From Halomicrobium mukohataei DSM 12286 (GTDB lineage Archaea; Halobacteriota; Halobacteria; Halobacteriales; Haloarculaceae): DNA of 32,000 bases. Both the position numbers and the translations under genes were made by a program. A model generated the notes under the pieces. It had not been told where the DNA came from. It searched no databases and saw only the letters and a list, made by a program, of their open reading frames with translations. Each line of letters opens with the position of its first letter. Position 1 is the stretch's first letter. This document shows positions 24,327-25,771 of this stretch, piece after piece. Location of the stretch: the NCBI RefSeq assembly GCF_000023965.1, contig NC_013202.1, positions 330,001 through 362,000 on the forward strand, read 5' to 3'.

Positions 24327-24698
24327 CTAGCAGTGGAACAGTGTTCCGAGTTTGTTTTGGATGTCTTCCATGTGTTTCGGTGGGATTTTGCCTAATCTCC
24401 ACGAATTGCTATCGTCATCATTTGCCTTTACTCGCTCTGCGAATGACACGGTCGTGATGAGATTCAGAATTACTACTGAATCTTCATCTAATCCATTGAC
24501 AGTACCTGGCAACTGCACCTCTCGAGCCCAACTCTGCCTGTCTCTTGAAGAGACCGGTGCCACAACCACACCCCTATCCTCATCGCTCGGGTGTTGCACG
24601 ACTACAGCAGGATGTGGGTCCTCAAATTCCCCCGGCGGGGATTCTTCGCTGTCGATGAAATTGACGTGAATGAGGTCTCCATACTCGGGAAAGCTCAT
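24327..24698 (-). CDS. mazF: MazF/PemK-family toxin (putative endoribonuclease), 123 aa
   Basis: The motif order matches E. coli MazF: GDLIHVNF (GDLIWVDF), HPAVVVQ (RPAVVLS), VVVAPVSS (LCVPCTT), DSVVILNLITTVSF (GVALADQVKSIAW), and KIPPKHMEDIQNKLGTLF (TVAPEELQLIKAKINVLI). Its ATG overlaps the upstream stop as ATGA (24695-24698). Confidence 0.8.
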   Translation of the reverse strand: MSFPEYGDLIHVNFIDSEESPPGEFEDPHPAVVVQHPSDEDRGVVVAPVSSRDRQSWAREVQLPGTVNGLDEDSVVILNLITTVSFAERVKANDDDSNSWRLGKIPPKHMEDIQNKLGTLFHC

Positions 24699-25771
24699 TC
24701 TTGCGTAACTTCTCCTTCTGCCCTCTTGATAGCTTCTACACCCGTCCGGGAAACCGCATTCAGAAGAGACTCGTCTATAGATTGTTCCTCAGTCTCGCTA
24801 TTTCCCTGAGGCTCCGACGGTTCTCGATCCGGGTCAAGGTCGGAGTTCCCTCGCCGATCTCGAATTGAGTCAAGCTCATCAACCCAAGATCCGCCCCGGT
24901 ACGTTTTTACGGTAGCCTCTACGCTGGGCCGAAGGGAGTCAACGTTATCGCCACGCATCGTCTTCAATGAGACCTCCTGTGCAACGAAGTCCCAAATCGT
25001 GCTGTAGAATTTCCGAACTGCATTGCTGATGAATGCATCTTGCCCCGAAGATAGTTCTTCCATAGCGTCTGCCTCAGCGATAACGCTGGTGAGGACCTTT
25101 TGGTACTCTCTCAGCGGCTCGGTAGTATGCTCTAATTCTTCGTGCTTTGCCACCTCATTGATAACGGGAGTGAACCGCTTCTCTAGTTCGTAGTAGTAGT
25201 GTGTGGAGTCCTCGTGCCAACTCTCGTCATCCTTGATTTTGTCGAGAGTCTGCTGAAGACGCGCACTGGCAATATACAGGTCAGTATATCGCGCCGCATA
25301 TCGGTCCCTTGGGGCGTATTTGGCGTAAAAATCCTCCAGATACTCCTTAGTGTTCTCAGCTGTCACAATCTTATCGAACTCCTCGCCGAGTTCTGAGATG
25401 AAATAGTAGGCAAACTCCTCGGTTGAGAGAGAATCTCTTGTCGGTAGCCGAGACTCCTCAAGATGCGAGATCTCGCTCCCCGGTGCTGGCATCAGACTTG
25501 CATTATGGTCGGAAGTAACGTCCTCTGGAGCGGGGCCGTATTTATACCAGCCAAAGGTCAGGCCAAGGTCTCGATCTTCGTTGACGATGTACTGAAGCTT
25601 GTTTAGACGAATCTTATCGAGCCTGATGTCCTCCTCCGCAAAGCGCCCTCGTTCCTTGCCTAGGAAAAGAGCGTATTGGATTCCCTCTTTAATATCAGCA
25701 AGGAGGGATTCCTCGTCGCCGCTAGTGAGCATACCATAGATACGGATCTGAGAGTACTTTATATCTTGCAT
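24695..25771 (-). CDS. Unknown 358-aa protein, first gene of the MazF operon (candidate atypical antitoxin/sensor)
   Basis: It is a clean 358-aa ORF in low-GC DNA with protein-like composition. The body is helical and Tyr/Glu/Lys-rich, and the C-terminal ~60 aa form an acidic tail. I saw no RHH, AbrB, HTH or other canonical antitoxin motif. It is translationally coupled to the MazF-like gene. Confidence 0.75.
   Translation of the reverse strand: MQDIKYSQIRIYGMLTSGDEESLLADIKEGIQYALFLGKERGRFAEEDIRLDKIRLNKLQYIVNEDRDLGLTFGWYKYGPAPEDVTSDHNASLMPAPGSEISHLEESRLPTRDSLSTEEFAYYFISELGEEFDKIVTAENTKEYLEDFYAKYAPRDRYAARYTDLYIASARLQQTLDKIKDDESWHEDSTHYYYELEKRFTPVINEVAKHEELEHTTEPLREYQKVLTSVIAEADAMEELSSGQDAFISNAVRKFYSTIWDFVAQEVSLKTMRGDNVDSLRPSVEATVKTYRGGSWVDELDSIRDRRGNSDLDPDREPSEPQGNSETEEQSIDESLLNAVSRTGVEAIKRAEGEVTQE

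Follow-up and report, generated by a model that had tools for sequence, protein, structure and literature searches.

Type II toxin-antitoxin (TA) modules of the MazEF and PemIK (Kis-Kid) type combine a PemK/MazF-fold toxin with an antitoxin encoded by the preceding gene, the two genes being joined by a stop/start overlap, and the MazE antitoxin carries an acidic, disordered C-terminal segment; disordered segments are typical of the neutralising regions of type II antitoxins. In bacteria, one and the same domain, Panacea (PanA, DUF4065/PF13274), is encoded ahead of toxins of dozens of unrelated kinds, PemK and ParE types among them (Kurata et al. 2022, PMC8832971). In haloarchaea, little is known about TA systems beyond VapBC, HicAB, CreTA and two MazF toxins assayed in Escherichia coli, and the vapBC genes of Natrinema gari have an overlapping two-gene layout, the logic of which was shown experimentally (PMC13488343). 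Here, a gene pair in a 32,000-nt stretch of contig NC_013202.1 of Halomicrobium mukohataei DSM 12286 (the window, to whose positions the coordinates refer unless another locus is named) is analysed, in which a gene for a protein of the family DUF8098 (PF26400) directly precedes a gene for a PemK/MazF-fold protein; comparative evidence makes it likely that the pair is a type II TA module and that DUF8098 is a promiscuous antitoxin working like Panacea/PanA.

The pair resembles MazEF/PemIK in the fold of the predicted toxin, in the position of the putative antitoxin gene, in the stop/start overlap, and in the acidic, disordered C-terminus of the upstream protein. However, the upstream protein is four times longer than its MazE and PemI counterparts and lacks their AbrB/SpoVT or ribbon-helix-helix (RHH) domain, and His replaces the catalytic Arg in the toxin; because neither a MazE/PemI-type antitoxin nor the catalytic Arg is present, the pair is not MazEF/PemIK in the strict sense. 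Similarly, distant DUF8098 members precede PIN and RelE/ParE-fold genes in the overlapping two-gene layout of haloarchaeal VapBC (PIN) and of RelBE/ParDE, from which they differ in that the upstream gene encodes DUF8098 and not VapB, RelB or ParD. The gene order and the -4 overlap of DUF8098 and its partners match those of haloarchaeal type II modules (PMC13488343). A search of PADLOC-DB 2.0 (5,027 models) assigned no significant family to the window pair or to 8 of the 10 relatives and partners tested, and one relative gave a weak JAB match (E=0.006).

Conserved linkage and exchange of partners

No argument for an antitoxin role is stronger than the pairing of DUF8098 with RelE/ParE-fold, PIN and DUF8169 partners. 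The comparison comprised 52 loci with an intact full-length DUF8098 open reading frame (ORF), equivalent to 28 clusters at 90% identity, which were gathered from GTDB genomes, JGI metagenomes, exact-protein look-ups, and plasmids. Wherever more than ~350 nt of sequence follow the DUF8098 gene, a co-directional ORF begins no more than a few nucleotides from its stop codon, mostly with the -4 overlap seen in the window, where the toxin ATG and the upstream TGA share 4 nt. The partner is a PemK/MazF protein in 14 clusters (Pfam E-values down to 1e-17), which fall into two clades with 30-36% identity between them; it is a 150-aa protein of the RelE/ParE fold in 2 clusters, a canonical PIN protein (PF01850) in 1, DUF8169 (PF26507, 218-254 aa) or a clear relative in 6 with 2 weaker cases, and a small unknown protein in 2. 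The gene-neighbourhood check proposed in the first-pass annotation, which had nominated the pair as a novel TA or defence module, was thereby carried out: the link between homologues of the large protein and MazF-like genes recurs consistently at other loci, including plasmids, and linkage together with partner swapping provides good comparative-genomic support for a non-canonical TA pair.

The 150-aa partners belong to a family of 28 members without a Pfam match, exemplified by loci L006 (6969-7427) and L007 (6990-7442) (Halorutilus salinus) together with 26 related proteins. The AlphaFold model of this partner (predicted local distance difference test score, pLDDT, 82) has a beta-alpha-alpha-beta-beta-beta topology, and the top ~20 PDB structures retrieved with Foldseek are almost all ParE2, YoeB, HigB2 and Cami1, with YafQ further down; the probabilities are 0.9-0.99 and the target-normalised template modelling (TM) scores 0.5-0.73, at E-values of only ~1e-2. 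A C-terminal extension of three helices follows the RelE/ParE fold in this family, whose genes always lie directly downstream of DUF8098.

DUF8169 is the commonest partner among ten distant DUF8098 members that were looked up. Its invariant residues D9-T10, E51, D162 and D185, plus an Ala between the acidic residues (D-T...E...D...A...D), form a motif that, judged by eye, resembles PIN and points to a nuclease of that kind with a helical insertion; profile searches with DUF8169 against the PDB returned no match. By association, DUF8169 and the unnamed RelE/ParE-fold family are new toxin candidates.

The DUF8098 proteins of RelE-like-paired loci and of loci paired with the second PemK clade are 41% identical to each other, whereas either is only 34-35% identical to the window clade, and therefore toxins have been exchanged on one continuous DUF8098 lineage. 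Because this scaffold has been recombined with at least four toxin types, DUF8098 behaves like the bacterial Panacea antitoxins: in both cases one antitoxin scaffold lies directly upstream of many unrelated toxins, which for DUF8098 are PemK, RelE/ParE-fold, PIN and DUF8169 proteins, and in both cases the modules are mobile and may be chromosomal or plasmid-borne. This functional likeness consists of partner promiscuity and is not proof of membership in the Panacea family.

The PemK/MazF-fold partner and its active-site variant

The first-pass annotation had assigned the downstream gene to the PemK/MazF fold, and this was borne out by a match of the 123-aa protein to PF02452 (PemK_toxin) at E=3.4e-13 (50.2 bits, cut-off 23.1) covering model positions 3-108 of 109, along with a weak PDB match to MazF6 (5hk3); PemK relatives at other loci match the same model at E=1e-16 to 1e-17. 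The protein was aligned with the MazF sequences of E. coli and Bacillus subtilis, and the alignment with MazF6 from the PDB agrees with this independently. His29 occupies the position of the catalytic Arg (R29 in E. coli, R25 in B. subtilis), where PHPAV stands against HRPAV/VRPVL, and php lies opposite rrp of MazF6. His29-Pro30 is found in the window toxin and in all nine aligned relatives, from both DUF8098-linked PemK clades, and Arg-Pro is absent; Glu24, Pro30 and Ser/Thr50-51 are retained. The protein is a predicted RNase with a new His active-site variant, and the invariant His offers a direct test of the flexibility of the MazF active site. In the texts on MazF-hw that were searched, its antitoxin is not described.

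Family, start codon and domain architecture of DUF8098

The upstream protein, described in the first-pass annotation as a 358-aa product of no recognisable family, is a member of Pfam DUF8098. Its 100% match is GBQ70_05085 from Halomicrobium sp. ZPS1; a PF26400 match is precomputed for that protein, as it is for all 84 homologues found, each of which originates from Halobacteria or a hypersaline metagenome. A profile search of a representative library of 1.84 billion proteins retrieved 256 DUF8098 representatives at 50% identity (179 at E<=1e-10), nearly always 320-360 aa in length, with named members from Halorussus, Saliphagus, Natronococcus and similar genera; the range of the family known so far is confined to Halobacteria and hypersaline metagenomes. 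DUF8098 is mentioned in no paper of the literature library searched, and Pfam gives no function for it. When scanned directly, the 358-aa ORF matched nothing in Pfam (in a copy apparently lacking the PF26400 model), NCBIfam or PADLOC, MazE/PemI, RHH and AbrB families included, which supports the earlier remark that no RHH or AbrB motif is visible.

The length of 358 aa also requires revision, because all homologues begin with MLTxGDE, which aligns with Met14 of the window protein, because blastn similarity between loci has its left edge exactly at 25732/25733 (its right edge being the toxin stop codon), and because a promoter-like motif is spaced appropriately upstream; the true start is thus almost certainly Met14 (ATG at 25732), giving a protein of 345 aa, and the 13 additional residues encoded from the annotated start (25732-25771) are probably not translated. 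The annotated ATG (25771) falls within the conserved promoter-like motif, and the frame is open there only in this genome. The motif, ACATGCAAGATATAAAGT, is centred ~28 nt upstream of the Met14 ATG; ACGATGAAAGAGATAAAGT is kept at an equal distance in 9 other close-clade loci, and more distant clades have GAAAGA and an AT-rich box. We take this motif to be a putative haloarchaeal BRE/TATA (transcription factor B recognition element/TATA) promoter element, whose spacing would imply a leaderless or near-leaderless transcript. A further box, AGTGATTCGGTGCTAAG, is located between this motif and the Met14 ATG and is conserved in close relatives, although the window copy deviates from it; this box could be an operator.

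An AlphaFold2 model built from 47 sequences (pLDDT 84.7; predicted TM score 0.79; residues in the numbering of the 358-aa protein) divides the protein into three parts. The N-terminal domain (pLDDT mostly >90) comprises helices 17-40 and 53-67, a beta-hairpin at 73-82 containing the invariant GWYKYGP, and three short helices at 117-152, and its invariant residues in the alignment are D52, N57, L59, G74, W75, Y78, G79, P80 and P82. In the model, this helix/helix/beta-hairpin domain looks winged-helix-like, which renders doubtful the earlier remark that no helix-turn-helix motif is present. It is followed by a five-helix bundle (helices 160-181, 183-208, 211-235, 242-271 and 277-309, pLDDT 90-98) and by a tail in which residues 319-358 have pLDDT values of 31-45, with a low-confidence helix at 334-352. 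The first-pass annotation had called this tail strongly acidic and probably disordered: the predicted disorder stands, whereas the tail is only modestly more acidic than its surroundings, with 29% Asp+Glu in the last 48 residues versus 15-23% in neighbouring housekeeping proteins, so that acidity is a weak argument in this organism. Foldseek searches of the whole model against the PDB and BFVD returned nothing at E<=0.001, the top entries being generic helical bundles and rhodopsins, and DUF8098 profiles searched against PDB sequences gave only noise.

The three parts are unequally conserved. The N-terminal domain is the most conserved region and is independent of toxin type, with 55% identity between the PemK-paired and RelE-paired clades and 58% within one clade; conservation is lowest in the tail, with 14% identity between clades and 23-26% within them, and the tail carries clade-specific terminal motifs. 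Because the N-terminal domain is blind to toxin type and the tail varies most, a division of roles may be inferred, in which the tail would contribute toxin specificity and the N-terminal domain a function common to all modules. The disorder and fast evolution of the modelled tail are compatible with the proposal of the first-pass annotation that the tail is the neutralising segment and the body a sensor, without amounting to proof.

Mobility and decay of the cassette

DNA similarity between loci, as determined by blastn, is limited to the two genes. In Halomicrobium, the cassette occupies the intergenic region between a thioredoxin gene and a DsbA-like gene, with mutS adjacent; in Halorhabdus utahensis, it adjoins a Cdc6/PolB element. 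Five copies are located on haloarchaeal plasmids, one on pHH126 (Haloarcula hispanica) and the others on plasmids from Haladaptatus, Halobacterium noricense, Haloplanus, and Halobacterium DL1. Two of these plasmids, pHH126 and that of Haladaptatus, encode a PemK/MazF partner, which RefSeq names 'PemK/MazF family toxin', the DUF8098 protein being entered as 'hypothetical protein'. No relatives of DUF8098 were found in the phage collection or in IMG/VR.

Decay was observed at two loci. In Halomicrobium katesii, at the same site and with 98% identity, mazF is split by an 83-nt insertion and the DUF8098 gene is intact, as would be expected for a toxin and its antidote, of which only the toxin is dispensable; in one Natronomonas metagenome-assembled genome, both genes contain frameshifts. 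The H. katesii DSM 19301 insertion (NZ_KB905378.1; L001 7326-7408) has imperfect terminal inverted repeats of ~24 nt, TACGGAAAGTTGTAGGTCTTTACC...GGTAAACGCCTACAACCGTCCGTA, and a central palindrome, and looks like a miniature inverted-repeat transposable element; no copy of it is present in the window. A second insertion of ~77 nt in H. katesii lies near the equivalent of window positions 23925-23930.

Proposed mechanism and competing explanations

On the preferred reading, the locus would be a TA module carried on a small, horizontally acquired cassette. Transcription from one promoter, the BRE/TATA-like box, would yield a leaderless or near-leaderless bicistronic transcript from which the DUF8098 antitoxin is made first, and translation of the toxin would be coupled to the DUF8098 gene by the ATGA overlap. 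DUF8098, consisting of a winged-helix-like N-terminal domain (K-L-x-Y...GWYKYGP), the five-helix bundle, and a fast-evolving, disordered acidic tail with a short helix, would bind the toxin, of the PemK/MazF endoribonuclease type, directly and thereby neutralise it. The tail, perhaps together with the bundle, may provide the toxin-specific contacts, and the N-terminal domain may serve in operator binding or dimerisation, or as a Panacea-like scaffold, irrespective of the toxin. Within haloarchaea, this scaffold would have been recombined with at least four toxin types: PemK (two clades), RelE/ParE-fold, PIN, and DUF8169.

Several observations weigh against this interpretation. The sample of loci is biased to close relatives and metagenome fragments. 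The substitution of His for the catalytic Arg means that the RNase activity of the predicted toxin could be altered or lost. The terminal helix of the tail is loosely alike across partner classes (T/S-x-A-S...E-x-I/M), which weakens the case for the tail alone encoding toxin specificity. Moreover, at 345 aa, the protein is far above typical antitoxin size, and no significant structural neighbour was found for its structured body, so DUF8098 may do more than neutralise.

Among the alternatives, it is a real possibility, though one we lean against, that DUF8098 is a true but highly diverged member of the superfamily that comprises Panacea/SocA (DUF4065, PF13274) and the C-terminal domain of DarG, with a helical bundle added in archaea, and that neutralisation proceeds through an N-terminal Panacea-like domain. 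A 2026 paper reports homology between DUF4065 proteins and this domain of DarG (PMC13621843), and the toxins found with PanA antitoxins include PemK, ParE and many others (PMC8832971). The N-terminal KLxKLxY...YGP motif of DUF8098 resembles proteins linked to the Panacea superfamily: K-L-x-K-L-x-Y...G-W-Y-K-Y-G-P aligns with a family named 'YwgA' by JGI, and hhalign returned 94.8% probability for the DUF8098 alignment (E=5e-8, 38 columns) and 85.4% for a broader DUF8098 profile (37-38 columns). The top PDB match of the 'YwgA'-named profile is in turn 7yk3_B, the DarT-binding C-terminal domain of Mycobacterium tuberculosis DarG (E=1.1e-3, two collinear segments), a helical, toxin-binding antitoxin domain that shares the motif QKLxY...YGPYS with that family. 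No other TA-related structure ranks near the top in the Foldseek search with the DUF8098 model, where 7yk3_B stands at rank 7 of 350,542 chains. However, this last match is non-significant (E=1.3, TM 0.13-0.21), DUF8098 profiles did not reach 7yk3_B directly at E<=10, and the similarity to the 'YwgA'-named family spans just ~38 columns, so that the relation to DarG is indirect and below significance when sought directly. DarG further differs in having an N-terminal macrodomain and in neutralising an ADP-ribosyltransferase (DarTG, PDB 7YK3), and Panacea differs in that DUF8098 is about twice its size, with the five-helix bundle and disordered tail placed after the motif domain, whereas the extra domains of PanA proteins are N-terminal (helix-turn-helix or PAD1) (PMC8832971). 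The Panacea model itself was never significantly matched: hmmscan with PF13274 (E<=1-10) found no match in the window protein, in sets of 47 and 122 family members, or in consensus sequences, and its best score among 74 bridging members of the 'YwgA'-named family was 11.4 bits (E=0.63, cut-off 25.7). Direct membership of DUF8098 in PF13274 was consequently rejected, every direct test having failed. The independence of the N-terminal domain from toxin type (the 55% versus 58% identity given above) also speaks against this alternative.

The 'YwgA'-named family comprises proteins of ~165 aa from Planctomycetota/Phycisphaerae without a Pfam assignment, with the motif KLQK..Y...GWYKYGPYSQDL in common with DUF8098. 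The loci of this family that were checked contain no overlapping downstream toxin-like gene; a PHROGs scan of the family found only unannotated phrogs, a tblastn search of plasmids with its consensus gave no match, and a literature search for 'YwgA' produced nothing useful.

It is rather unlikely that the pair is primarily an anti-virus abortive-infection system, in which DUF8098 would be a sensor-antitoxin that detects a viral trigger through its helical bundle and then sets the RNase free, in the manner of CapRel-type fused systems. The structured body is larger than neutralisation needs, the modules reside on mobile elements and plasmids, and several relatives adjoin defence-type genes, namely AIPR with an HNH nuclease, nucleases of the PLD family, and an HsdR fragment of a type I restriction system (L059 2342-4155; L049 3548-3994; L050 861-1748; L055 5155-5981), which hints at defence-island contexts; TA-based sensing has a precedent among Panacea systems (PMC9712102). 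On the other hand, the pair matches no PADLOC model, the phage and IMG/VR searches yielded no copy, the window copy is surrounded by housekeeping genes and not by a defence island, and nothing at hand separates defence from plain addiction. Less likely again is the combined proposal that DUF8098 is the archaeal counterpart of Panacea, a hyperpromiscuous antitoxin scaffold, and that its bundle is a sensor freeing MazF, RelE, PIN or DUF8169 RNases upon virus infection or stress, with possible distant homology through the motif domain common to the DarG C-terminal domain and the 'YwgA'-like proteins; if true, the cassettes would constitute an unrecognised family of haloarchaeal abortive-infection systems, and the MazF with His for Arg would represent a catalytic variant new to the fold. 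Least probable of all is a non-toxic MazF-like protein that has lost its catalytic Arg, in a regulatory or RNA-handling pair with DUF8098 as the main functional protein. This explanation draws on the high conservation of Arg25 among characterised MazFs and on the inactivity of the R25A variant of MazF-Da (PMC8634880), and on DUF8098 being the larger and better conserved partner. However, the His is invariant across PemK clades that are only 30-36% identical, which argues for a functional residue under selection and not for decay, and Glu24, Pro30 and Ser/Thr50-51 are kept; the alternative partners, RelE/ParE and PIN, are classical toxin folds, it is the toxin gene that has been inactivated in H. 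katesii, and the pair is mobile and plasmid-borne.

The comparative data thus suggest DUF8098 as a new, promiscuous family of haloarchaeal antitoxins. If this is true, the antitoxin role would explain the apparently orphan haloarchaeal PemK/MazF toxins, for which RefSeq shows no recognised antitoxin, and would give a function to two Pfam families (DUF8098, and DUF8169 as a toxin candidate) and to the unnamed RelE/ParE-like family. It would also be a second example, this time in archaea, of a single antitoxin scaffold swapped among unrelated toxins, thereby making the idea of the promiscuous antitoxin testable outside bacteria.

Locus anatomy and neighbouring features

The features of the locus are compiled in Table 1. 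The two minus-strand ORFs (24695..25771, 358 aa; 24327..24698, 123 aa) and their ATGA overlap, both noted in the first-pass annotation, were read directly in the sequence, and the low-GC (guanine plus cytosine) island that it described is equally evident: over ~2.2 kb (~23.9-26.1 kb), the GC content is 0.49-0.56, as against 0.65-0.73 around it, or ~50% versus 69%.

Table 1. Coordinates of the DUF8098-PemK/MazF locus, its flanks, and related features
Feature	Position	Strand	Basis or remark
PemK/MazF-fold putative toxin gene, 123 aa	24327..24698	(-)	PF02452; weak PDB match MazF6 5hk3; MazF alignment
His29 codon of the MazF-like protein	24612..24614	(-)	at catalytic Arg position
ATGA overlap, toxin start / DUF8098 stop	24695..24698	(-)	direct reading: ...ACG CAA GAA TGA GCT TTC...
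DUF8098 (PF26400) gene, proposed antitoxin	24695..25732	(-)	345 aa from Met14; annotated 358 aa from ATG 25771
C-terminal tail, residues 311-358, candidate toxin-binding segment	24698..24841	(-)	predicted disordered, acidic
Five-helix bundle, residues 159-310	24842..25297	(-)	AlphaFold2 model
N-terminal domain, residues 14-155	25307..25732	(-)	AlphaFold2 model; most conserved part
Motif region, residues 50-88, RLDKIRLNKLQY...TFGWYKYGPAPEDV	25508..25624	(-)	common to bacterial 165-aa 'YwgA'-named family
BRE/TATA-like motif ACATGCAAGATATAAAGT	25756..25773	(-)	centre ~28 nt upstream of Met14 ATG
Low-GC island	23908..26114	unstranded	composition profile; between convergent thioredoxin and DsbA-like genes
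Thioredoxin gene, left flank	23572-23907	(+)	neighbour annotation
DsbA-like gene, right flank	26115-26783	(-)	neighbour annotation
15-nt inverted repeat, left copy GTGATACTGCCGGCT	23904..23918	(+)	island edge; overlaps thioredoxin stop codon
15-nt inverted repeat, right copy GTCATACTGCCGGCT	26073..26087	(-)	island edge
DUF8169 genes at other loci	L047 1412-2068; L049 2785-3462; L050 3605-4369; L056 3379-4056; L059 1267-1950		

A 15-nt repeat is present in just two copies in the 32 kb, inverted and at the edges of the island, with 0.03 expected by chance. Possibly, these repeats delimit the inserted cassette; no extension past 15 nt and no target-site duplication were seen. The window contains no tRNA gene, and reading of the island flanks in six frames revealed no convincing remnant of an integrase. 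Rfam recognised no family in the island, a sub-threshold C/D-box match inside a coding region (E=0.07) being rejected as chance. A scan for sigma-70 promoters and intrinsic terminators was set aside as not informative for an archaeon.

A possible hidden antitoxin upstream of the pair, a 58-aa ORF (25824..26000), was rejected because that region is not conserved between loci; comparison of related loci revealed no conserved small ORF either upstream of the pair or between its genes.

At the Halorutilus salinus locus L006, three small ORFs directly upstream of the DUF8098 module resemble a small TA cluster: a 144-aa ORF (4635-5069), which starts with FFDTSALV and is PIN/VapC-like by eye, is followed by ORFs of 91 aa (5201-5476) and 109 aa (5479-5808). 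In the window, MutS-family genes lie on both sides of the cassette, at 20703-23459 (-) and ~29.4-32 kb, with a spacing of ~10 kb, and the plus-strand ORF 20850..24089 is a spurious antisense ORF of the kind typical of high-GC DNA. Just past the DsbA-like gene, a second GC dip (0.59) contains two paralogous small ORFs of the Pfam family DUF7331, at 26833-27012 (-) with 59 aa and at 27260-27511 (-) with 83 aa, which have the motif VYDRxNxxAWIQSD in common.

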